From contig VMGY01000005.1 of assembly GCA_007378955.1 (NCBI GenBank), positions 1 through 56,302 of the forward strand: a DNA stretch of 56,302 nucleotides. Reading direction: 5' to 3'. The stretch comes from Parcubacteria group bacterium Athens0714_12. GTDB lineage: Bacteria; Patescibacteriota; Patescibacteriia; UBA2591; VMGY01. Positions 2,258 through 29,590 of the stretch are shown piece by piece. The notes beneath the pieces were generated by a model. That model saw nothing but the letters and a program-made list of their open reading frames with translations, ran no database searches and was not told the origin of the DNA. The position numbers and the translations under genes were made by a program. The number at the start of each line of letters is the position of its first letter. Positions within the stretch are counted from its first letter, which is position 1.

Positions 2258-5056
2258 TTATTCTTCCCAAATTTTCTCAAAAAATCCCAAAGGAATTAGT
2301 TTGATATTTTGATGGACTGGCTGGCCTTCAGCCACAAAAAATTCTTCAGATTTATAAATTTTATATCCTTTTGCTTTTGCTTCTAAATAATATTTGCCTT
2401 GTGGCGTTAAAAAAGAATATTGGCCTGTTTTATCCGTGATTTGCGGATTTTTTTGGTCATATTTTCCCGCTTGCCAAATTTCAAATTTTTCTGTTTGCGG
2501 ATTGAAAAAATAAATAGTGATTTCAGCCTGCGGAATCCTGGTTTCTTTATCTTTGACTTCCTCGCTAAAAACATATCCTTCCGGGTCAATTAAAATTTCT
2601 GTTTCTATTATTTTATCCTCGCCGTCCGCGTAATTAATCACTGTGGCAAGGGAAAATTGACCGGCAACGGGCGGCAATTGGATTTCCGCCTCATAAATTC
2701 CGTCTTTATCGGGGTCGCTGTAAATAAATTCGCCAATCAGCCATTCTTTCGCCTGCGCGGCGTCAAAAACCGCGTCAAAAATACCGGCTACTTCTTGGGC
2801 TTGCGCGAAGGGAATACTAAGTGTCATTGCGAGGAGCGAACGCAGGGATTTGCTTACATTGTCATTGCGAGGAGCGACTGAAGCGAAGCGGAAAGAGCGA
2901 CGAAGCAATCCCGTTGTCTGTTGCATTCCCATCGGGATTGCCGCGCTCAACTGCCTGCTGGCAGCCTCGCTCGCAATGACGTTATTATTAGCCCGCGCCG
3001 ACAAAGATTTAATAAAAATCAACTTTCCCTTAATCTCTTTTGCCGGTTTTATTGGTTTAATAAAAGACTTAAAATTACTGCCGGCTATTAAAACTGCTTG
3101 CTCTTTTCCCGCGCTCTTTATTTTAATATTGCCAAAAGACGAAACAAACAGCGGTTTTTCCTCTAAAATTTGTTCTGGCGCCAAAGACGACTCCTTAACA
3201 ATAATCGGCGGTTCTATTGGCTGAACTTCTGTCGGCGGACTTGGCGGCTGTTTTTTCTCGCGCGTCTTTACCTCGGGTTTCAAAACTAAAAATATTTTCT
3301 TGCCTGTCTTATTTAAAGCAATAGCCGTATTTTTAACTGCCGTGGCAATGCCGCGGACAATCTTTAAAGAAAAACTCTGAATATTTTGGCCGGTTCCTTT
3401 AATTATTCTAAAACTGGATTGAAAAATTCCGCGGACAATAATCACTCCGGATTTTCCCAAATCTTTGCCCGCTTCTTTAATTTCCAGAAATGGATTTTTA
3501 ATTACATCTTCAAAATCAGAGAAAGCCAATTCTTTGATTTCCTGATAACTATCTTTCAAATTCTGCCCAATCGCCTGCCAATTTTTTTTAATCTCTTGCC
3601 TAATAGAAATCTTTTCTTTGATTGGCGATTCCATTATTGGCTTTTCAATAATTGGCAATCCTTCTTTAGAAATAATTTCTTCAATCGGAGTGATTTTTTC
3701 CGGAATAATTTCTCCCGGGGGTTCTTTTGGAATAATCTTTTCCCATTCTTTAACCGGCCGCTCAATTTCTTCCCATTTTATTGGCAAAACCGCGGGAATC
3801 TCCGGCGTTGTTGTTATCTCTTTCTCTATTATTTCAAAATAAATAATTTCTTCGGGGCTGAAATTTCCCGCCGCGTCTTGAGATTTAATAATTAATTTAT
3901 GTTTGCCCAATTTTAACGGGGTAATAATTTTATATGACCACTTGCCTTGTAAATCCGTCAGTGTCTGATAAAAAACGAAATCATCAAGACTGATAAAAAT
4001 CTTACTGTCGGGTTCAGCCGTCCCGGAAATAATCGGCGTCTTTTCTAAAATTTGCTCGCCATCGGCGGGATAAACAATAATCAAACCATCCGGCGACAAA
4101 GTGTCTAAAATAATAGAATCTGAAATCACTTGCGAGGCAACGCCGCCCGGACTTCTGAATTTGGCGTAGACATTTTTCACGCCGTCGCCTATCTCCAAAT
4201 ACCAAATTCTATTCTCTTGATAATTTTCCCAGCTAATTCCCTCAAAACTTTCTTTATTGGAAACAGCCATTTGGCTGGCGTTTTCAGCCGACAAACTTAA
4301 AACAACTCTTCTGGAATAAGTATATAACGCGCCTTTATCAATCAGTAAAGAAGCTGGTTTCCGCTCTGTCGCCTGCTCCCCGGAAACCACTTGCGGCGGT
4401 GGCGGCAGGCCAGGTCCGCCACCTGCCGTCATACAAGCAGACGTATTAAAAGTACAATTAGAACTGCATCCTAATGTCCCAGCGGTAAAACCCCGGCTTA
4501 AACAAGTTGCTCCACCCAATAAAGAGCCGTCGCACTGCTCCCCTGTTTCTAAAAGTCCGTTGCCGCAAGTCAAAGTAACCCAATTTGTTTTTACTTTATA
4601 ATCCACGTCAACGCAAGAGCCGGTTTTAAGACAATTAAAAACAATCCAGCCGATGTTTTCACCCCAAGCGTATCCGTTAAAATTTCCCACTGAATCAATG
4701 GTTACGCCGCCGTAAGTTGGATTAAAATTTATCCAACCCGTATTCTCGCCCCAACCGTAGCCAGTCAAATTCCCGTTAACATCATTACTCACTCCGCCGT
4801 AGACAGGGCTTAAATCAATCCAGCCGGCATTTTCAGCCCAAACATAACCGGAAAGGCCGGTATCTGTTACTTGCACATTGCCTTCTGAACTGCCAAAATT
4901 AAGCCAGCCGATATTTTCACCCCAAGCGTATTTATAATTCGCGTCAATAGTTCCCGTAGTTTCCGCCGCAAACGCAAAATTAACAGTTATCAACTGCCCT
5001 ATTAAAGCAAAAAGTAATATGATAGTAATAAATTTATTTCGCCTCATTAATTTCAT
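2258..5056 (-). CDS. Large secreted or surface repeat protein. It has a signal peptide, four GYAWGENIGWINF-type repeats, a Myxococcus-type cysteine-rich repeat, a poly-Pro stretch, an Ig-like region, a PE-rich linker and a C-terminal prealbumin/CarboxypepD_reg-like domain.
   Basis: N-terminus MKLMRRNKFITIILLFALIGQLITVNFAFA (signal peptide). Repeats (GY[AV]W[GA]EN[IAT]GW[IL][NDV][FL]) occur four times. CGNGLLETGEQCDG...C matches the TIGR02232-like cysteine repeat. PGLPPPPQ follows. A MITE-like element (2825-2985) is carried in-frame. Confidence 0.6.
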   Translation of the reverse strand: MKLMRRNKFITIILLFALIGQLITVNFAFAAETTGTIDANYKYAWGENIGWLNFGSSEGNVQVTDTGLSGYVWAENAGWIDLSPVYGGVSNDVNGNLTGYGWGENTGWINFNPTYGGVTIDSVGNFNGYAWGENIGWIVFNCLKTGSCVDVDYKVKTNWVTLTCGNGLLETGEQCDGSLLGGATCLSRGFTAGTLGCSSNCTFNTSACMTAGGGPGLPPPPQVVSGEQATERKPASLLIDKGALYTYSRRVVLSLSAENASQMAVSNKESFEGISWENYQENRIWYLEIGDGVKNVYAKFRSPGGVASQVISDSIILDTLSPDGLIIVYPADGEQILEKTPIISGTAEPDSKIFISLDDFVFYQTLTDLQGKWSYKIITPLKLGKHKLIIKSQDAAGNFSPEEIIYFEIIEKEITTTPEIPAVLPIKWEEIERPVKEWEKIIPKEPPGEIIPEKITPIEEIISKEGLPIIEKPIMESPIKEKISIRQEIKKNWQAIGQNLKDSYQEIKELAFSDFEDVIKNPFLEIKEAGKDLGKSGVIIVRGIFQSSFRIIKGTGQNIQSFSLKIVRGIATAVKNTAIALNKTGKKIFLVLKPEVKTREKKQPPSPPTEVQPIEPPIIVKESSLAPEQILEEKPLFVSSFGNIKIKSAGKEQAVLIAGSNFKSFIKPIKPAKEIKGKLIFIKSLSARANNNVIASEAASRQLSAAIPMGMQQTTGLLRRSFRFASVAPRNDNVSKSLRSLLAMTLSIPFAQAQEVAGIFDAVFDAAQAKEWLIGEFIYSDPDKDGIYEAEIQLPPVAGQFSLATVINYADGEDKIIETEILIDPEGYVFSEEVKDKETRIPQAEITIYFFNPQTEKFEIWQAGKYDQKNPQITDKTGQYSFLTPQGKYYLEAKAKGYKIYKSEEFFVAEGQPVHQNIKLIPLGFFEKIWEE
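2825..2985. repeat. MITE-like palindromic element, family 1 (gtcattgcgagg...cctcgcaatgac), copy A, inside the surface-protein CDS
   Basis: One partial and one full unit: gtcattgcgaggagcga... then gtcattgcgaggagcgactgaagcgaagc...gcaatcccg...gggattgc...cctcgctcgcaatgac. The host ORF stays open across it. Confidence 0.7.
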
Positions 5057-5105: not shown

Positions 5106-5789
5106 CTATTTCGCCTGTATAATAATCTTGTTCGCGATAGAAAAAATTTCTTTTTTAAAAAATTTTTTAACCTCCCGCCAGCCGGCTTTAAAATAAATTT
5201 CCGGCTCTGGATCGTCTTCGGCGTCTTCAAAATACGCCAAACTCTTTAAGATATGATGAAAATTATGAGCGACAGAGGGATATTGAGCGGGCAGTCTTTT
5301 GATTATATTCTCCAGAGATTCAATGTTTTTCGCGCACCAATACGCGTCAAAAAAATCTCTTTTTTTGCCTCGCTGGGATATGGCAATAATCTTCATCACG
5401 GCAATGTCAATCGGTTGAAGTATTTTGATTGAGCCATACCGAATAAATTCTTGTTTGGGAATAAAAAAGGGATAAGCGATAAAACTTGCCTTCGCGCCGA
5501 ATAATTCGCCATATATGGTATTATCTTCTTCAAAATTAATCTTCCAATTATCATTGCCAATGAAATGAGTTATAATCGCGCTTGATTTAAAATTAGCATT
5601 TTGATTAAAAAAATCTAAATCAACCGATTTGCGACAACCTGTTTGCAACGTTAATGCCGTGCCGCCGGCTAAATACCATTTAGATTTTAAAAGCCACTTT
5701 TGTTCAGACAAAAAAACAAACGCCTTTTTTGTTTCAGACGGCAAAATTTTTGAATTGATATCTATTTGTTTTTTAAAAGCAGTGTCCAC
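5106..5789 (-). CDS. Nucleotidyltransferase of the AbiEii/AbiGii (DUF1814) toxin family
   Basis: WYLAGGTALTLQTGCRKSVDLDFF matches the AbiEii NTase core (GG[TS]AL...R.S.D[IL]DF). Size is 227 aa. It overlaps the small upstream ORF by 28 bp. Confidence 0.6.
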   Translation of the reverse strand: MDTAFKKQIDINSKILPSETKKAFVFLSEQKWLLKSKWYLAGGTALTLQTGCRKSVDLDFFNQNANFKSSAIITHFIGNDNWKINFEEDNTIYGELFGAKASFIAYPFFIPKQEFIRYGSIKILQPIDIAVMKIIAISQRGKKRDFFDAYWCAKNIESLENIIKRLPAQYPSVAHNFHHILKSLAYFEDAEDDPEPEIYFKAGWREVKKFFKKEIFSIANKIIIQAK

Positions 5790-5989
5790 AAATTTTTAGT
5801 TCTAGGCCTTAATGACCTTGATTTTGCTACGACTTTTTTGAGTAGCGGCTTATCATAAAAATCATAAAGCCACTTAACTTCTTTGTCATTGCCAAAATCC
5901 AAAATACGCTCAATAACATATTGGGCATTTTTTTTCGCGTCTATTTTGCGCGGATTGACATCCCAGAATAATACTTGTCTAAATTTCAT
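5762..5989 (-). CDS. Small conserved partner protein upstream of the AbiEii-family NTase; putative antitoxin-like
   Basis: 75 aa (MKFRQVLFWDVNPRKID...YVIERILDFGNDKEVKWLYDFY). It is translationally coupled with and overlaps the NTase gene. The function is inferred from this arrangement only. Confidence 0.4.
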   Translation of the reverse strand: MKFRQVLFWDVNPRKIDAKKNAQYVIERILDFGNDKEVKWLYDFYDKPLLKKVVAKSRSLRPRTKNLWTLLLKNK

Positions 5990-6302
5990 ATGCTTATTTT
6001 ATCAAAATTTACCGCGACTTGCAATTTTTCAAATTGGTATATTATACATTGATAACATATAATATTTAACAAATATTTCAAAATATCCGTCTATGTAATT
6101 ATTATACTTTATCTTGCCCATTTTTGCCAACCGCCGATCATTCTGCCAATTTCGGCCATTTCTTTTTGGGCTATCGTAAATGCTGATTATACTGATTTTA
6201 TTATCAGTGATATCACGGATTAAACCTGCCTATGTTATAATAAAATATAATCGTTTTTCATTTCCTCTATGAATAATTATACCACAAAATCCGATATACC
6301 GC

Positions 6303-6340
6303 ATTACGAGAGAGAGAGAGAGAGAGAGAGAGTAAAACAC
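6303..6340. repeat. (GA)12.5 microsatellite inside a ~37-bp inverted repeat; left boundary of the DGR cassette
   Basis: cattacGAGAG...GAGtaaaac. It is the reverse complement of 9590-9630 (caatacGAG..GAGagtaaat). Both runs are exactly 25 nt. Confidence 0.8.
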
Positions 6341-7202
6341 ACGCTACCAATTTTTTCAACTTTCAAAATCTCCTCAAAGCGTATTATCAATGCCGAAAAC
6401 GGAAAAGAAAAACTGCCAATGCCGCTAAATTTGAATTAAATTTTGAAAAAGAACTTCTAAAACTGGAATGGGAACTGAAAAATCATACTTATCAGCCCGG
6501 CAGGTCAATCTGCTTTATTGTAACTGATCCCAAACCGCGCGAGGTTTTTGCCGCTGACTTCCGGGACAGGATTATCCACCATCTTTTAATAAATTTTTTG
6601 GAACCGATTTGGGAACCAAAATTTATCCATCATTCTTACTCCTGCCGCAAAAACAAATTCTGCAGCACATTAACAAGGGAATAAATTTCATCGGCTATAT
6701 TATCAAACCGCATTACACTCTTGTCAGAAGGCGGATTGTCAAAAATCTGAAAAGAAAATTATGGCAATTCAATCTTTCCTTGCGTTATTGCATTTTTCCC
6801 TGTCATTGCGAGCGAAGCGAAGCAATCCCGAGGCAAGACGCGACAAACCAACGGGATTGCCACAGTCGGTCGCCTGCTGGCGACCTCCTTCACAATGACA
6901 CTTCTAAGTTGTCATTGCGAGGAGCGACTGGAAGGAGCGACGAAGCAATCCCGTTCGCTAATCCTCGGGATTGCTTCGTCGCCTCTGCTGAGGCTCCTCG
7001 CAATGACAGCGATGAACAATTAAAACAAATCCTCTCTGTTATCAACTCTTATTACGGACAATTTAAGCATAGCAATACTTTTAATTTACGAAAACATCTT
7101 TATCAAAAACATTTTGGGATTTTAAAAAACTATCTTGAGCCGGCTGACCCCGTTAGATATGACTATTTCAAAATCAAAAATTTTAAAAAAATAAAAATCT
7201 AA
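6335..7202 (+). pseudogene. Remnant of a diversity-generating-retroelement reverse transcriptase. The N-terminus is cut by (GA)n, the catalytic domains 3-6 are deleted, there is a frameshift, and two MITE units are inserted.
   Basis: Frame 1 (6361-6681) reads NLLKAYYQCRKRKRKT...YQPGRSICFIVTDPKPREVFAADFRDRIIHHLLINFLEPIWEPKFIHHSYSCRKNK, which are RT domains 1-2 of DGR type. A stop follows. Frame 0 (6609-7202) reads GINFIGYIIKPHYTLVRRRIVKNLKRKL (thumb region) and ...SYYGQFKHSNTFNLRKHL (RT C-terminus). There is no YxDD region and no start codon. Confidence 0.75.
6801..7006. repeat. MITE-like element, family 1: two tandem units (6801-6900 and 6911-7006) inserted in the RT remnant
   Basis: Unit 2 is almost a perfect nested palindrome: gtcattgcgaggagc / gcgacgaagcaatcccg ... 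cgggattgcttcgtcgc / gctcctcgcaatgac. Confidence 0.75.
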
Positions 7203-7289
7203 CGGGGCTGATGAAAATTTCAGTCATTTTAAGAAACACGATATCCGCGATTCAAAAAAACTCAATGAAGCCAAAAGTTTTTTATGATT

Positions 7290-7436
7290 ATTGCCAAGAG
7301 AGCTAACGAACGCAACGCGAGTCATAAGTATTAGTCTTAAGATTGTTGTTCGTGTTGCCGTTGTTCAAGTTCACGTTCCACGCGTTGTGGGTATTGTTAG
7401 ATTTAGTAGTGGCTGACCAAAAGTTGTTACCGGCGT
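7290..7436 (-). repeat. DGR template repeat (TR); its sense is on the minus strand
   Basis: It is 147 bp with no indels relative to VR 8067-8213. Its AAC and AAT codons on the minus strand correspond to varied VR codons. The IMH*-like end is attgccaagagagctaacg. Confidence 0.8.
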
Positions 7437-7603
7437 AAATTTTTTTCCGCTATTTTTCCTTAACTGAATCAATCTTTGCCAAAGCAAAGTATAATTCAAT
7501 TGATACTTTATCCCGCAGTACTACGGGAAGCGGAATCGCAATAATTCTCAAACCCGCTTTTTGTTTGTCCTGCAGACGCGGGACTAAAACAAAAATTCTG
7601 GCT

Positions 7604-7969
7604 TCATTGAATTTTCCTTTTCAAATTATCAAAAAACCATTTTTCCCAACCAAATACCTGTTTAGAAATTTCCTCTAAAAAACGGCTTAAAAATTCTAAT
7701 TTTTTAACATTAATTACTTTCAAATCATAAGCCACTCTTAAATGAATTTTTAATCGTTCAATCCTCGCATTTATTTCCGAAAAATAAATCCCTTTATCTT
7801 CCTTGGAATTAGTTACAACAATCCAATCCAAAAGTTCGCCAACTATTTCTTTTAATTTTTGACCCAATGAATATTTATATTCTCTGGGAAAATTATGTGT
7901 CGTGCGATAAATTTCAAGATTTAAATCATATCCCTTTTGAAAAATTGGCAGATGAATATAACGCGACAT
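7604..7969 (-). CDS. avd: Four-helix-bundle protein (TIGR02436, the '23S rRNA IVS protein' family); Avd-like DGR accessory variability determinant
   Basis: LPIFQKGYDLNLEIYRTTHNFPREYKYSLGQKLKEIVGELL...RIERLKIHLRVAYDL fits the four-helix-bundle family. It lies between VR and TR, as in canonical DGRs. Confidence 0.65.
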   Translation of the reverse strand: MSRYIHLPIFQKGYDLNLEIYRTTHNFPREYKYSLGQKLKEIVGELLDWIVVTNSKEDKGIYFSEINARIERLKIHLRVAYDLKVINVKKLEFLSRFLEEISKQVFGWEKWFFDNLKRKIQ

Positions 7970-8066
7970 ATTCCTCCTTAAATATATACGCTAATAATGC
8001 CGAATCGATGTTTTATTAGTTTTATAAAAAAATAATTAAATTAAAAAAATCATAAAATTATAAAAT

Positions 8067-8213
8067 ATTGCCAAGGGGGCTAACGAACGCAACGCGAGTC
8101 ATAAGTATTAGTCTTAAGATTGGCGTTCGTGTAGCCGTGGTACAAGTACACGTCCCACGCGTTGTGGGTACCGTTAGATTTAGTAGTAGCCGACCAAAAG
8201 GAGTTACCGGCGT
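8067..8213 (-). repeat. DGR variable repeat (VR), covering the last 44 codons of the target gene plus 13 bp past its stop codon (the IMH-like end)
   Basis: It differs from TR at 12 TR-adenine positions: AAC>GCC, TAC x3, CAC, GAC, TCC; AAT>GGT; TCA>TCG. There is 1 silent non-A change and 2 changes in the GC-richer IMH end (ggggg versus gagag). Confidence 0.8.
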
Positions 8214-9540
8214 GGGGTATAACGGTTGAGGAGCTCCATGACCCGTCAATATACGCTTGCATCAATTCTTTTTGGTGGGGTAAACGCCAATTGCCATCTC
8301 CTAAGGCCTTACAACCGGTAATGTTCGGGGTGCTGGTTGCTGTAACACATCGGCAGGCATCATTACCGTCAGCAGTGCAGGTTCCTGGGTTTGCCCAACT
8401 TTCCGGCGCCCAGCAATTATTCGCCCACCACCAATTATGATCAGTTCCACTGTCTAAATAATCAGACCAAATTTGTCCTGTATTATTGTCTTGATAGCAA
8501 ACATCGCCCGCGCAAGCCGTAGAATCTCCTGTTTTGCAATAATTATTAGCCGCAGCGCATTGGGTCCAAGAAGCGGCAAAACTATCAGTCGGTCTTGCCC
8601 CGGCATCATTATAATCATCTACTCCGCCTAAGGCTTGAGTATAAAAAGCAAAATCTTCCACCGGACTGGTCGCCGAGCCATTTTTTATATTCACCACTGA
8701 AAACATATTTCTGTTATTCAAATATTCCAGCCGTTCTAAAATATTTCCGTCTATATTGGCGGAGATGGTGGTTGAACTATATCCGGACTTAGCGAGCGCG
8801 TCTAAATATTCGGCTCTGGTATAAGTCCAAGTGGTGGAGCTCGCCAAGGCGGTGGAAGCCGGCGCCGCATAATCATAGAGCGTTTTCTGCCAGCCGAAAA
8901 TATTAGCGGTGCTGGTGGCTGATGTGGAAGTGCCGATCGCGTCGTGCGTATACGCCTGCCCGGCGAATAAACTTGTTGAAGTGGCAGGGGTGGAAGTGTT
9001 CCAGCCGATTAAATAAGCGATACTGCCCCAAGCCCGAGTAGTTGAAGCGGTGGAGCTGGAAACAAGATATTTGAGGTCGGAATTGAGAAAATTTAAGTAT
9101 TCCGCTCGGCTGTTAGTCCATAAAGCAGTGGTTAACGCAGTGGAAGCCGGCGCGGTATAATCATAAAGAGTTTTCTGCCAGCCAAAAAGAGTTAAGGTGC
9201 TGGTGGCAACAGTGGAAGTGGCGATGGTGTCGCTAATCGCTTCCAAGCTGTCTGTGGTTCTGCTAAAAGTGTTATTGCTGTCTTTTGAAGCCATATCCAA
9301 TAAGGAATGCATGGTGGCGGCCGGGCTTGCCGAAGGCGTTAAACTGCCGGCGTAAGCGATCACCGTAATCACCAACACGGAAATAACCACAATCAACCCG
9401 TCAACAGCCAATTTATGGAGGTTCAACCTCCATATTGAGGTTGAACCTCCATATTCTTGTCCTTTTATCCTCTTGGATAATTTTTTTAGATAATCCTTTT
9501 TGTTTATTTGTTTCATAATTTTTCTCCAATAAAAAAACAC
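8080..9540 (-). CDS. DGR target (variable) protein. It has an N-terminal TM or signal segment, tandem ~85-aa Thr/Ser-rich repeats and a C-terminal DUF1566/C-type-lectin-like ligand-binding domain that holds the VR.
   Basis: C-terminus ...GDGNWRLPHQKELMQAYIDGS...FWSATTKSNGTHNAWDVYLYHGYTNANLKTNTYDSRCVR* (the DUF1566 hallmark ends in RCVR). The exact start is uncertain because a REP doublet (9412-9452) lies in-frame near the annotated N-terminus. Confidence 0.7.
   Translation of the reverse strand: MFFYWRKIMKQINKKDYLKKLSKRIKGQEYGGSTSIWRLNLHKLAVDGLIVVISVLVITVIAYAGSLTPSASPAATMHSLLDMASKDSNNTFSRTTDSLEAISDTIATSTVATSTLTLFGWQKTLYDYTAPASTALTTALWTNSRAEYLNFLNSDLKYLVSSSTASTTRAWGSIAYLIGWNTSTPATSTSLFAGQAYTHDAIGTSTSATSTANIFGWQKTLYDYAAPASTALASSTTWTYTRAEYLDALAKSGYSSTTISANIDGNILERLEYLNNRNMFSVVNIKNGSATSPVEDFAFYTQALGGVDDYNDAGARPTDSFAASWTQCAAANNYCKTGDSTACAGDVCYQDNNTGQIWSDYLDSGTDHNWWWANNCWAPESWANPGTCTADGNDACRCVTATSTPNITGCKALGDGNWRLPHQKELMQAYIDGSWSSSTVIPHAGNSFWSATTKSNGTHNAWDVYLYHGYTNANLKTNTYDSRCVR
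9412..9452. repeat. REP doublet: tatggaggttcaacctccata + ttg + aggttgaacctccatat (inverted pair)
   Basis: It has the same palindrome core as the RAYT-flanking REPs. It is translated in-frame (YGGSTSIWRLNLH) in the 5' extension of the DGR target ORF. Confidence 0.7.
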
Positions 9541-9589
9541 TATTAAAAACAGTGTTTTAAAAATATTTTAAAATTAAAAATTCGTAAGC

Positions 9590-9630
9590 GAAATTTACTC
9601 TCTCTCTCTCTCTCTCTCTCTCGTATTGGT
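9590..9630. repeat. (CT)12.5 microsatellite inside a ~37-bp inverted repeat; right boundary of the DGR cassette
   Basis: Reverse complement of 6303-6340. Confidence 0.8.
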
Positions 9631-9687
9631 TATTTTATTCCCTTTGCTCATATTTTAAATTCTACCACAAAATAAAAAGCAAAAAAA

Positions 9688-10092
9688 TTAACGAACAGTT
9701 GAGATAAATTCTTCAACATCTTTTAACCTATTTTGTAAAACATCATAGACAATATCATAATCTATTTTTTCGTAATCGTGAGCCATCACATTTCTAAAAC
9801 CTGTCATTCTCGCCATTTTTTCCGTCAATTCATTAGAAATCATTTTTTGTTCGTTTAAGATATAGAAACTTTCACTCATCGTGGATGGTTTGCGAAAATT
9901 TTTAGCGGAAACAATCGCCTCCGCCAAATCTATTACTGATTGGACGAGTAAATATAAGTATCTTTCCACCGCTCCTCTAATATTTATATCCCGCTCTATT
10001 TCTTTTCTTGAATAATTTTTATAATTCTCTAAAATTTTCAGGTATTTTTTAACAGCGCTGATTTTATTTTCAATGGCGGACAATTTTGTCAT
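9688..10092 (-). CDS. hepT: HepT-family toxin (HEPN domain; DUF86)
   Basis: R-x4-HxY HEPN motif FRNVMAHDY; 134 aa. It overlaps the upstream MNT gene in an ATGA overlap. Confidence 0.7.
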   Translation of the reverse strand: MTKLSAIENKISAVKKYLKILENYKNYSRKEIERDINIRGAVERYLYLLVQSVIDLAEAIVSAKNFRKPSTMSESFYILNEQKMISNELTEKMARMTGFRNVMAHDYEKIDYDIVYDVLQNRLKDVEEFISTVR

Positions 10093-10095
10093 ATT

Positions 10096-10500
10096 TTACG
10101 CTTTAGTTAAATTATGCCGCAAAAGCAAACTATGGAAATCAAAATATTCATTTAAAATTTTTGGCTCAATTAAAACCTTATACGGCTCCCGCTCAAAAAT
10201 TAATTTTCCTTCTTTAATTATATTGTATTTCAATTCAGGCCCTTCGGCAACATTCAAAACAACTAAATCCACTTTATCTGTCTTAAGCGTTCGGGATATT
10301 TTATCCATTAACTCGCACCTAAGATCAAAAATCTTTTTTTTATTTTTTTCGGCGAAATAAACGGCGAAATCGTAATCGCTCATTGGACCTTTTTTATTTT
10401 CCGCCGTTGAACCGAATAAATAAACCAAACCCACTTTTTTTAAAGAGCGAAAAACAGGAGATAAAATTTGAGAGATTTCTTTAATGCTTAAATCTTTCAT
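10096..10500 (-). CDS. mnt: MNT-family minimal nucleotidyltransferase antitoxin
   Basis: GS-x9-13-DxD motif LFGSTAENKKGPMSDYDFAV; 134 aa; it sits upstream of hepT. Confidence 0.7.
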   Translation of the reverse strand: MKDLSIKEISQILSPVFRSLKKVGLVYLFGSTAENKKGPMSDYDFAVYFAEKNKKKIFDLRCELMDKISRTLKTDKVDLVVLNVAEGPELKYNIIKEGKLIFEREPYKVLIEPKILNEYFDFHSLLLRHNLTKA

Positions 10501-17164: not shown

Positions 17165-17275
17165 AATTAAAAAATAACGGTTTCAAGGGAGGTGGATATG
17201 TCTTTTTTGCAGACGCGGCGATTAGTCCGCAGCGCAAAAAAGATATGTCCACCTCCTGATTATTTATTTCATAAT
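17165..17275. repeat. MITE-like element, family 2, diverged copy, in the L18/L6 spacer
   Basis: ggaggtggatatgtcttttttgcagacgcggcgattagtccgcagcgcaaaaaagatatgtccacctcc: a stem of different sequence but the same structure as the other copies. Confidence 0.55.
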
Positions 17276-18296: not shown

Positions 18297-18416
18297 ATTA
18301 TTTTATATTAATTACTTTGAATTACGAAATAGGCTGAGTAGGAGGCGCGCTCATATCTTTTTTGCAGACGCCCGTCATTAGTCCAAAGGCTAAAAAAGAT
18401 AGGAGCGCGCCCTGAA
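18297..18416. repeat. MITE-like element, family 2, in the S8/S14 spacer
   Basis: TIRs ttgaattacgaaat / atttcgtaattcaa; core hairpin ggaggcgcgctcatatcttttttgcagacgcccgtcattagtccaaaggctaaaaaagataggagcgcgccc. Confidence 0.75.
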
Positions 18417-18452
18417 TAATGAATTTCGTAATTCAAGCTAATTATGAAATTT

Positions 18453-23270: not shown

Positions 23271-23281
23271 AATTAATTTCT

Positions 23282-23401
23282 TTGAATTACGAAATAGGTT
23301 GAGTAGGGGGCGCGCTCATATCTTTTTTGCAGACGCCCGTCATTAGTCCAAAGGCTAAAAAAGATATGAGCGCACCCTGAATAATGAATTTCGTAATTCA
23401 A
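23282..23401. repeat. MITE-like element, family 2, in the L2/L23 spacer
   Basis: About 95% identical to 18297-18416, with the same TIRs and core hairpin. Confidence 0.75.
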
Positions 23402-23402
23402 G

Positions 23403-23810
23403 CTAATTTTTAAATATCTCTATTTTATCTTCTTTCTTTAAAGTAATAATTGCTTTTTTTAAATTTTTAGTTTTTCCCTGGACTTTGCCGTATCTTGTAT
23501 TTTTGCCCCTTGTCTTGATTATATTCATCTTGATCGGGCTAACATTATAAAGCCCTTCAATGGCTTTTTTAATTTCAATCTTATTCGCGTCTTTTGAAAC
23601 TTCAAAAACATATTTATTCTTTGCCGCTAAATCAGTTGTTTTTTCCGTAATCAAGGGTTTTATTAAAATTTTGGAAATTAACCCTTGATCTTTTTTAAAT
23701 ATTTTATTTTTATCTCGCGCAATCTTAACATTAGAAGGTTCTTTTTTGATTTCTTTTTTTACCTCTTTTTTTTCTGTTTCTTTCTTTTGTTTAAATCCAA
23801 ATAAAGCCAT
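23403..23810 (-). CDS. rplW: 50S ribosomal protein L23 with an N-terminal Lys-rich extension
   Basis: ...ILIKPLITEKTTDLAAKNKYVFEVSKDANKIEIKKAIEGLYNV... Confidence 0.85.
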   Translation of the reverse strand: MALFGFKQKKETEKKEVKKEIKKEPSNVKIARDKNKIFKKDQGLISKILIKPLITEKTTDLAAKNKYVFEVSKDANKIEIKKAIEGLYNVSPIKMNIIKTRGKNTRYGKVQGKTKNLKKAIITLKKEDKIEIFKN

Positions 23811-29488: not shown

Positions 29489-29590
29489 AATAGTGTCATT
29501 GCGAGGAGCGACTGGAAGGAGCGACGCGGCAATCCCGTGGGATTAACACGGGATCCTTCGGTCGTCCGCCAGCTGGCAGACTCCTTCAGG
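29489..29590. repeat. MITE-like element, family 1, copy D, in the fusA/rpsG spacer
   Basis: gtcattgcgaggagcgactggaaggagcgacgcggcaatcccgtgggatt...cttcaggatgac. The left arm is identical to the unit at 6911. Confidence 0.65.

Follow-up and report, generated by a model that had tools for sequence, protein, structure and literature searches.

Here we describe a locus derived from a diversity-generating retroelement (DGR) on contig VMGY01000005.1 (assembly GCA_007378955.1) of Parcubacteria group bacterium Athens0714_12, and the whole stretch analysed, 56,302 nucleotides in length, is called the window below. In a DGR, a reverse transcriptase (RT) and the Avd protein copy the RNA of a template repeat (TR) into cDNA with misincorporation opposite template adenines, and this cDNA replaces a variable repeat (VR). 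In the window, pieces of an RT gene lie in two reading frames on the + strand (6269-7202), and are convergent on a target-avd-TR unit on the opposite strand, in which VR forms the 3′-end of the target gene (Table 1). Relatives' loci or contigs are denoted with L numbers and relatives' RT proteins with P numbers. An earlier reading made from the letters of the DNA and a list of its open reading frames (ORFs), the sequence-only reading, had proposed a DGR at this place.

Table 1. Features of the DGR-derived locus (positions are those of the window)
Feature	Position	Strand	Remarks
Extended -10-like box TGTTATAAT	6233-6241	+	28 nt upstream of the RT leader ATG
RT leader MNNYTTKSDIPHY	6269-6307	+	Ancestral RT start codon and first 13 codons
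(GA)12.5 tract, RT side	6308-6332	+	Left-arm core of the inverted repeat; 13 codons past the conserved start
RT remnant, N-terminal part	6333-6660	+	Frame of 6271; ...SKTHATNFFNFQNLLKAYYQCRKRKRKT...FAADFRDR...HHSYSCRKNK, then out of frame
Deletion junction	6648-6677	+	Inside A-rich run CGCAAAAACAAATTC; RT finger/palm core removed
RT remnant, post-palm part	6663-6774	+	Frame of 6270; ILQHINKGINFIGYIIKPHYTLVRRRIVKNLKRKLWQFN
Palindromic insertion in RT 3′ part, resembling a miniature inverted-repeat transposable element (MITE)	6775-7010	.	Stop-free, in frame, net ~0.2 kb
RT remnant, C-terminal part (...INSYYGQFKHSNTFNLRKHLY...)	7011-7202	+	Stop codon 7200-7202; P0005 residues 291-354 at 6987-7166
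Hairpin between convergent RT and TR units	7148-7207	.	Arms 7148-7173 and 7182-7207
3′ arm of TR-bracketing helix	7254-7276	-	Pairs with 7596-7618 over 23 bp
TR, intact	7289-7436	-	Repeat scan, alignment, translation
5′ arm of TR-bracketing helix	7596-7618	-	Overlaps the avd stop codon
avd, intact	7604-7969	-	121 aa; bAvd PF22296 59.1 bits (cut-off 40), model positions 3-105 of 107
VR	8066-8213	-	Coding 8083-8213; stop codon 8080-8082; tail 8066-8079 resembling an initiation of mutagenic homing (IMH) site
Target gene	8080-9516	-	478 aa from ATG 9516 (public gene calls); ORF open to GTG 9540
Two tandem palindromes TATGGAGGTTCAACCTCCATA resembling repetitive extragenic palindromic (REP) elements	9406-9454	.	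In-frame insertion in the target's 5′ coding region
Terminator-like hairpin and U-run	9534-9558	-	Between the target-side tract (about 40 nt upstream of the hairpin) and the target start codon
(GA)12.5 tract, leader of the target-avd-TR unit	9598-9622	-	Core of the right arm (9594-9628)
Extended -10-like box TGGTAGAAT	9659-9667	-	Target-side tract 36 nt downstream of the box

A repeat scan and alignment recovered TR and VR as a single gap-free direct repeat of 148 nt with 90% identity and a spacing of 777 nt. This is one base longer than the 147 bp claimed by the sequence-only reading, whose gap-free alignment and codon-by-codon list of changes are both correct. VR covers the final 43-44 codons of the ORF 8080-9540, the stop codon and then 14 nt. 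On the coding (-) strand the two copies differ at 15 positions, and 12 of these are adenines in TR (5 A>G, 4 A>T and 3 A>C); with 48 adenines among the 148 bases of TR, the hypergeometric probability of at least 12 of 15 is 9e-5. Thus, the claimed concentration of mismatches at TR adenines is reproduced by an independent alignment. The other three mismatches are one silent C>T change (GCC>GCT) and two T>C changes within the 14 nt past the stop codon. In the frame of the target, TR translates as AGNNFWSATTKSNNTHNAWNVNLNNGNTNNNLKTNTYDSRCVR with 14 AAY (asparagine) codons, of which 8 are altered in VR (AGNSFWSATTKSNGTHNAWDVYLYHGYTNANLKTNTYDSRCVR). The divergence of TR and VR is therefore confirmed as adenine-specific, and the locus derives from a genuine DGR. 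No further VR copies or remote targets were found within the window.

The GC-richer 3′-end of VR had also been taken as the difference between IMH and its counterpart in TR, IMH*. The T>C changes behind this claim are present, giving CCCCC after the stop codon of VR where TR has CTCTC, and the assignment is plausible; but the difference is 2 nt only, direct reading of the AT-rich segment 8000-8065 past VR revealed no GC-rich inverted repeat or hairpin, and no IMH-type difference was found inside the repeat of the related element L003.

A database search with the joined RT pieces returned 317 relatives, and the full-length ones are proteins of 345-365 aa with PF00078; the 197-aa RT ORF of the window is itself recorded publicly as ‘Retron-type reverse transcriptase’. 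Compared with the full-length DGR RTs P0001-P0013, the remnant is 70-81% identical. Columns 106-276 of an alignment (A1) with seven full-length relatives (60-71% identity) are missing from the window, among them QGLPIGNLTSQFFAN (the IGNLTSQ motif) and YLRYVDD (the YVDD motif). Consistently, tblastn of P0005 against the window gave only residues 2-81, 236-293 and 291-354, the first of these at 6418-6657 with 74% identity, and the N-terminal remnant matched positions 3-108 of the NCBIfam model group_II_RT_mat (E 2.8e-8). The junction was located by blastn against L006, in which 5873-6212 corresponds to 6308-6647 of the window and 6757-6853 to 6678-6774. Hence, 544 nt of L006 are represented by 30 nt here, and the net loss of ~514 nt (~170 codons) is not a multiple of 3, leading to a frameshift. 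Downstream of it, the MITE-like insertion occupies 236 nt of the window where L006 has 32 nt (blastn), and further copies of its units TGTCATTGCGAGG...CCTCGCAATGACA are located at 2822-2914 and 29494-29538. The MITE-like element is thus also present inside the ORF of a 932-aa surface protein (2258-5056).

With the catalytic core lost and the MITE-like element inserted, the RT in cis is non-functional, and the locus is DGR-derived and not a complete DGR. The DGR identity and all components named by the sequence-only reading hold, but an element that works in cis does not, since the core of the RT is gone.

The TR, avd and target are intact. The Avd-like gene had been proposed from the letters alone and is borne out by a Pfam bAvd match above the cut-off (Table 1), and against the NCBIfam model DivGenRetAVD the protein scores 68.5 bits, which is under the equivalog cut-off of 80 of that model. 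The target protein consists of a membrane anchor at the N-terminus, duplicated repeats and, at the C-terminus, an Lcl_C/C-type-lectin-like domain bearing VR. Its residues 350-486 match Pfam Lcl_C (PF07603, formerly DUF1566) with 36.2 bits, just over the cut-off of 34.9, and PF07603 is present in 80/80 database homologues of the C-terminal 193 residues. An AlphaFold2 model of the C-terminus, made with an alignment of 45 of these 80 homologues, has a mean pLDDT (predicted local distance difference test score) of 85, and its best match in the PDB is the C-terminal domain of Legionella pneumophila Lcl (8q4e; Foldseek E 7e-4, probability 1.0), ahead of snake-venom C-type-lectin-like proteins, langerin and dectin-1. 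Both family and structure thus agree with the DUF1566/C-type-lectin-like scaffold that had been named for the target. Compared with Legionella Lcl, sequence identity is 19% and the template modelling (TM) scores are 0.40/0.56, and the target here has extra Cys-rich insertions and a DGR hypervariable face. In the alignment of homologues, the 14 AAY positions have a column entropy of 2.96 bits, compared with 1.00 at other VR positions and 1.34 in the remaining domain; the whole target family is thus diversified at the positions that a DGR would be expected to change. The N-terminal half of the target contains an internal duplication of 99 nt (8846-8944 and 9134-9232, 81% identity), which would account for a length of 478 aa, about twice that of most homologues (about 250 aa).

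At the edges of the segment delimited by the sequence-only reading there is a 35-nt inverted repeat, CATTAC(GA)12GTAAA at 6302-6336 and its complement at 9594-9628, with 97% complementarity. Its two cores are the only tracts of at least six GA units in the window, where shuffles predict 0. On the left side, the tract follows the RT leader, whose ATG at 6269 is offset by +1 from the frame of the RT body. Tract-free relatives have the leader fused in frame with an intact RT, as in P0026 (MNNYTTKSIYPTN...FSFQSLLKAYYQCRK), L015/L093 (M(L)MNNYTIESSRNK...) and L096/L098 (MSNYSTKLEKGDK...). This in-frame leader of the MNNY type places the left tract inside the 5′ coding region of RT, past the start codon and ahead of the first conserved RT motif.

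Moreover, the tract recurs at the orthologous spot. Among relatives fetched by exact look-up it is present in every close one (15 units in L003, 27 in L005, 15 in L006, 9 in L205, 5 in L206, 8 in L207, 13 in L208 and 9 in L209), and unbiased scans of genomes and metagenomes gave 22 units in L007, 10 in L013, 5 in L009, 15 in L014, 19 in L092 and at least 19 in L099. Sorted by the identity of the RT N-terminus to that of the window, an RT-side tract was found in 8/14 loci at ≥70%, 4/17 at 60-70%, 1/111 at 50-60% and 0/15 at lower identity. Overall, a tract at this spot was counted in 13/31 relatives with ≥60% identity and in 1/126 more distant ones. In most tract-bearing loci there is no ATG, GTG or TTG in the RT frame between the preceding stop codon and the conserved F.FQNLLKAYYQCRK segment, and the nearest upstream ATG is out of frame, by +1 in the window, L003, L006, L014 and L209 and by +2 in L007, L011 and L208. 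The only clear locus with an in-frame start is L092, and the short-tract proteins P0030, P0034 and P0055 are also exceptions. Whatever the frame, (GA)n contains no stop codon and encodes Glu and Arg in alternation, and a change of one unit is enough to bring either out-of-frame state into frame. A programmed frameshift in a fixed direction (-1 or +2) was rejected due to the mixture of +1 and +2 offsets among loci.

Could such tracts be neutral microsatellites or assembly artefacts, with the RT starting at an unrecognised codon past the tract? Gene callers do place GTG, TTG or ATG starts downstream, and the RT-side tract keeps its length in near-identical contigs, i.e. in 3/3 contigs of the window type. 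(GA)nGTAAA is also found in unrelated viral contigs: a scan of IMG/VR for (GA)8GTAAA gave 34 hits, 0 of them adjoining a DGR RT, so the GTAAA suffix is not diagnostic, and no member of the clade came up among viral contigs in this way. Nevertheless, the tract is at the orthologous site in at least 13 loci of one clade that were assembled independently, the 1.03 Mb of fetched DNA contains hardly any others, and a neutral microsatellite of 10-27 units would not be expected to survive where proteins have diverged by about 50-80%. In addition, the 20-25 residues from the tract to the called starts are conserved as protein across the DGR RT family, which indicates that they are translated. We therefore regard neutral tracts as unlikely, though worth keeping in mind.

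Upstream of the RT leader, the extended -10-like box of the window has a counterpart, TGNTATAAT, at the same position in L205, L206 and L208, and is a candidate promoter. On the opposite strand, the leader DNA AATTATACCA (6276-6284, -) reads as a perfect extended -10 box, TGGTATAAT, and in L015, L205 and L207 the DNA of the leader is conserved, also in cases where its reading frame or its ATG is not. This suggests a role of the RT leader as nucleic acid, possibly as a divergent promoter. A generic scan for sigma-70 promoters and terminators gave counts not above those of shuffles, and the motif TGNTANAAT is not enriched in the window (15 found, 16 expected); the basis for assigning promoters at this locus is therefore only their positional recurrence in relatives.

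Whether the locus still changes can be read from related assemblies. An identical Avd protein is encoded on four contigs, two of which were compared with the window, L001 (GCA_007376655.1) and L002 (ERZ27284377). The three are 99.9% identical over 9.2 kb, with differences at 3302, at 9461 and in the right-hand GA tract, and TR, VR and all three RT lesions are identical among them. The sister element, L003, has the same gene order as the window and is the closest element with an intact RT (P0005). Contigs of this element from four samples are identical over 2.7 kb outside VR but have 9-22 differences in VR (8024-8171 in L003 and the same region in L004/L167, L169 and L170), and of 27 variable columns 25 are at TR adenines. 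The sister DGR is thus diversifying in nature and serves as a positive control: the same test detects activity with an intact RT and detects none at this locus. Moreover, it has (GA)15 in 5/5 contigs with its leader ATG in the +1 frame, hence a DGR that is ‘out-of-frame’ in this sense is nevertheless active in nature.

Taken together, the locus is probably a fossil DGR with a frozen variable protein. VR would be frozen unless an RT encoded elsewhere in the genome acts in trans, and a DGR that is still active, its TR RNA being copied by a closely related RT, would fit the intact state of avd, the target ORF and a TR that keeps all of its 14 AAY codons; more than one DGR is present in about 10% of the genomes that have any (Wu et al. 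2018, PMC5758913). Two observations make such an RT in trans quite unlikely: tblastn of P0005 found no second RT within the 56-kb window, and VR is invariant in three assemblies whereas the intact sister varies between samples in VR only.

The right-hand tract is located in the leader of the target-avd-TR unit. It is held by a mini-ORF, MSKGNKITNT(RE)n, whose stop codon is the TAA of GTAAA, and has 12 units in two assemblies and 6 units fewer in L002. The extended -10-like box upstream of it, whose function would be that of a promoter, has counterparts at the corresponding place in L208 (TGGTACAAT) and L015 (TGCTATAAT). Between the tract and the target start codon, the terminator-like hairpin recurs in L208 and L015 at the corresponding site, its pairing preserved by compensatory changes (ACACUG:CAGUGU versus ACGCCG:CGGCGU). 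L208, with an intact RT and a HepT neighbour, has both tracts in inverted arrangement, the target-side one at 5875-5899, whereas L015 has the target-side tract only (7993-8011). The downstream flank of the right tract resembles the 5′ flank of RT (local alignment score 23 versus 15.1 ± 2.4, reached by 16/2000 shuffles), and no similarity was found between the flanks upstream of the two tracts (score 13 versus 13.6 for shuffles). Thus, the right arm may originally have been a partial, inverted copy of the 5′-end of RT. The right tract might equally be read as part of an attenuator, as the end of an invertible segment or as a remnant of the RT 5′-end. Independent control by a simple sequence repeat (SSR) is ranked first, given that in most relatives one of the two tracts is missing.

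The invertible segment deserves a closer look. If the two (GA)12 tracts were the terminal inverted repeats of a mobile or invertible cassette of 3.3 kb, a flip would swap the promoter and leader of RT with those of the target. The inverted repeat does bracket the DGR exactly, and L208 is bracketed likewise; the arms are near-equal within a locus (12.5/12.5 units in the window, 13.5/12.5 in L208) despite 5-27 units across loci; and, across the 25-nt tract, the right-hand leader MSKGNKITNT would share the frame of the RT body. This last coincidence has a one-in-three chance, however, and most relatives have the RT-side tract alone, with the target-side tract alone in L015. There is no recombinase or transposase inside and no target-site duplication, and all three assemblies show one orientation, which makes a cassette very unlikely. 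A reading of the inverted repeat as a transposon was rejected for the absence of a target-site duplication and of an internal recombinase and for the mostly single-tract relatives. That TR and VR are an ordinary partial gene duplication with random divergence has nothing in its favour beyond the existence of a 148-nt repeat and can be practically discounted, given that the mismatch spectrum described above falls on the adenines of one copy on the coding strand and that the pair is flanked by avd and a remnant of a DGR-clade RT, with the same pattern in relatives.

We therefore turn to what the tracts might do. By the established DGR mechanism, the target-avd-TR unit would be transcribed from the - strand, with the RT encoded convergently, and in an intact element the cDNA made by RT and Avd would replace VR at the 3′-end of the target gene, so that up to 14 Asn (AAY) codons could be randomised in the ligand-binding face of a membrane-anchored Lcl_C-domain protein. 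As the RT-side tract in this clade usually puts the start codon and the RT body in different frames, RT synthesis would need slippage by one GA unit, at the level of DNA, RNA or ribosome, and such slippage would act as a low-level or stochastic gate on mutagenesis. A slippage-dependent switch on RT would be the most economical reading of the tract, albeit not a proven one.

Comparable tracts are known from phase-variable genes. In Mycoplasma, type III mod genes have (AG)n in their 5′ coding region and are phase-variable (PMC3498834; bioRxiv 10.64898/2026.04.01.715767), and in M. bovis the out-of-frame OFF states of (AG)n are leaky through frameshift suppression (bioRxiv 10.64898/2026.04.01.715767); H. 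pylori oipA has a (CT)n tract in its 5′ coding region (PMC10564699). In E. coli, two-nucleotide transcriptional deletions concentrate in dinucleotide repeats (PMC5574713). The likeness to mod and oipA consists in a long dinucleotide tract a few codons past the start, with the number of units setting the frame and with one unit separating either out-of-frame state from the in-frame one. Unlike in these SSR phase-variable genes, the gated gene here would encode the RT of a system for hypermutation, in a bacterium of the Candidate Phyla Radiation (CPR) that is free-living or episymbiotic, the RT-side tract is constant in near-identical contigs, and the second tract lies in a 5′ leader and not in coding sequence. 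No report of a (GA)n tract was found in searchable papers on DGRs with SSR, phase variation, frameshift or GA repeat.

The explanation that best accounts for the whole locus, and in which we have high confidence, is a chromosomal DGR of the CPR type that diversified in the past and has lost its RT in cis, with GA tracts that would gate RT by slippage. The more specific proposal is that in a clade without an in-frame RT start, RT and hypermutation would appear only after slippage of one unit, and that a second tract (in the window, L208 and L015) would gate the target-avd-TR unit likewise, as a stochastic switch atop a mutagenic retroelement; we advance this tentatively, as something possible rather than probable. 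Several points weigh against these readings. Neither the three window-type assemblies nor the five sister contigs have a length polymorphism on the RT side, which speaks against switching at the DNA level. Tract lengths were taken from short-read assemblies and are possibly wrong, and the mixed +1 and +2 offsets do not support a single programmed frameshift. As for the loss of activity, avd, TR and the target ORF are without decay, which also fits a recent loss or an RT acting in trans from elsewhere in the genome. Finally, the three assemblies may stem from related samples and consensus contigs mask heterogeneity of VR within a sample, hence ‘frozen’ is a statement on limited data.

Two further predicted structures lie near TR. 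In the presumed TR RNA, the TR-bracketing helix encloses TR and about 160 nt upstream of it with a duplex energy of -42.6 kcal/mol, compared with -26.5 ± 3.1 in shuffles, and its core GAAGCC(A/G)G:C(U/C)GGCUUC is also present in L003, L007, L008, L087 and L205, where the flanking pairs show compensatory changes. It is likely part of the RNA scaffold recognised by the RT-Avd complex. The hairpin between the convergent RT and TR units could serve as a bidirectional terminator. A search of Rfam at E≤1 on 6000-9800 gave no match.

DGRs of CPR and DPANN were reportedly first surveyed by Paul et al. in 2017. The convergent layout of the window is shared, each time with an adenine-specific TR/VR pair, by L003, L007, L008, L014, L015, L017, L023, L041, L064, L087, L091, L092, L094, L100 and L106, and more distant relatives have the canonical order VR-avd-TR-RT on one strand. 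Architecture B3 makes up 90% of CPR DGRs (Wu et al. 2018, PMC5758913), and the locus resembles it in having avd, TR and RT with a single adjacent target and the RT on the opposite strand, as well as in its groundwater Patescibacteria host, adenine-specific mutagenesis and C-terminal VR. The sequence-only reading had presented the locus itself as what is new; its DGR part is real, but the layout is the CPR norm, and as a DGR the locus adds little beyond a known kind. What sets it apart from CPR/DPANN DGRs is that its RT is a pseudogene and that (GA)n tracts, of which the searchable papers make no mention, are present in the RT 5′ coding region and the target leader.

Compared with the prototype, the DGR of Bordetella phage BPP-1 (mtd-avd-TR-brt), the locus has the same TR/VR pair with adenine-only changes at AAY codons, a four-helix-bundle Avd, a variable protein of the C-type-lectin fold and a VR 3′-end that is GC-richer than that of TR, in the direction in which IMH differs from IMH*. 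It differs in being chromosomal and not phage-borne, in an RT that is convergent and not downstream on the same strand, in a target of Lcl_C/DUF1566 type and not Mtd, and in the lack of a GC-rich hairpin past VR, with an IMH-like difference of 2 nt.

Several features of the surroundings may be recorded. The DGR is situated between two pairs resembling toxin-antitoxin systems, HepT with an MNT-type nucleotidyltransferase (9688-10500, -) and AbiEii with DUF6922 (5106-5989, -), and HepT adjoins the DGR target in L208 also. Other copies of the palindrome TATGGAGGTTCAACCTCCATA in the target are located at 1471-1500, 1674-1703 and 2206-2235, where they flank a Y1_Tnp gene (about 1510-2193, +); palindromes together with an IS200/IS605-type Y1 transposase gene form an arrangement like that of a REP-associated tyrosine transposase (RAYT), or REPtron. 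A Y1_Tnp gene adjoins the DGR in L003 and L005 also, and L005 contains 9 copies of a different palindrome, CGGAAGTCCGACTTCCG. In a related DGR with RT P0011 (L207, 2503-3239), two tandem avd genes lie between TR and target. Elsewhere in the window, 18307-18450 and 23272-23415 are direct copies of 144 nt, 95% identical and 4,965 nt apart, with a weaker partial third copy near 17221 and 49061.

The sister element and the window form a natural contrast: with an RT, only VR differs between samples, and without it VR is invariant. What deserves attention beyond this contrast is the conserved (GA)n tract, which breaks the reading frame of RT in a clade that is otherwise active and has a counterpart in the leader of the target in three loci. 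A slippage gate on RT synthesis, if true, would be a simple answer to how DGR mutagenesis is restrained.

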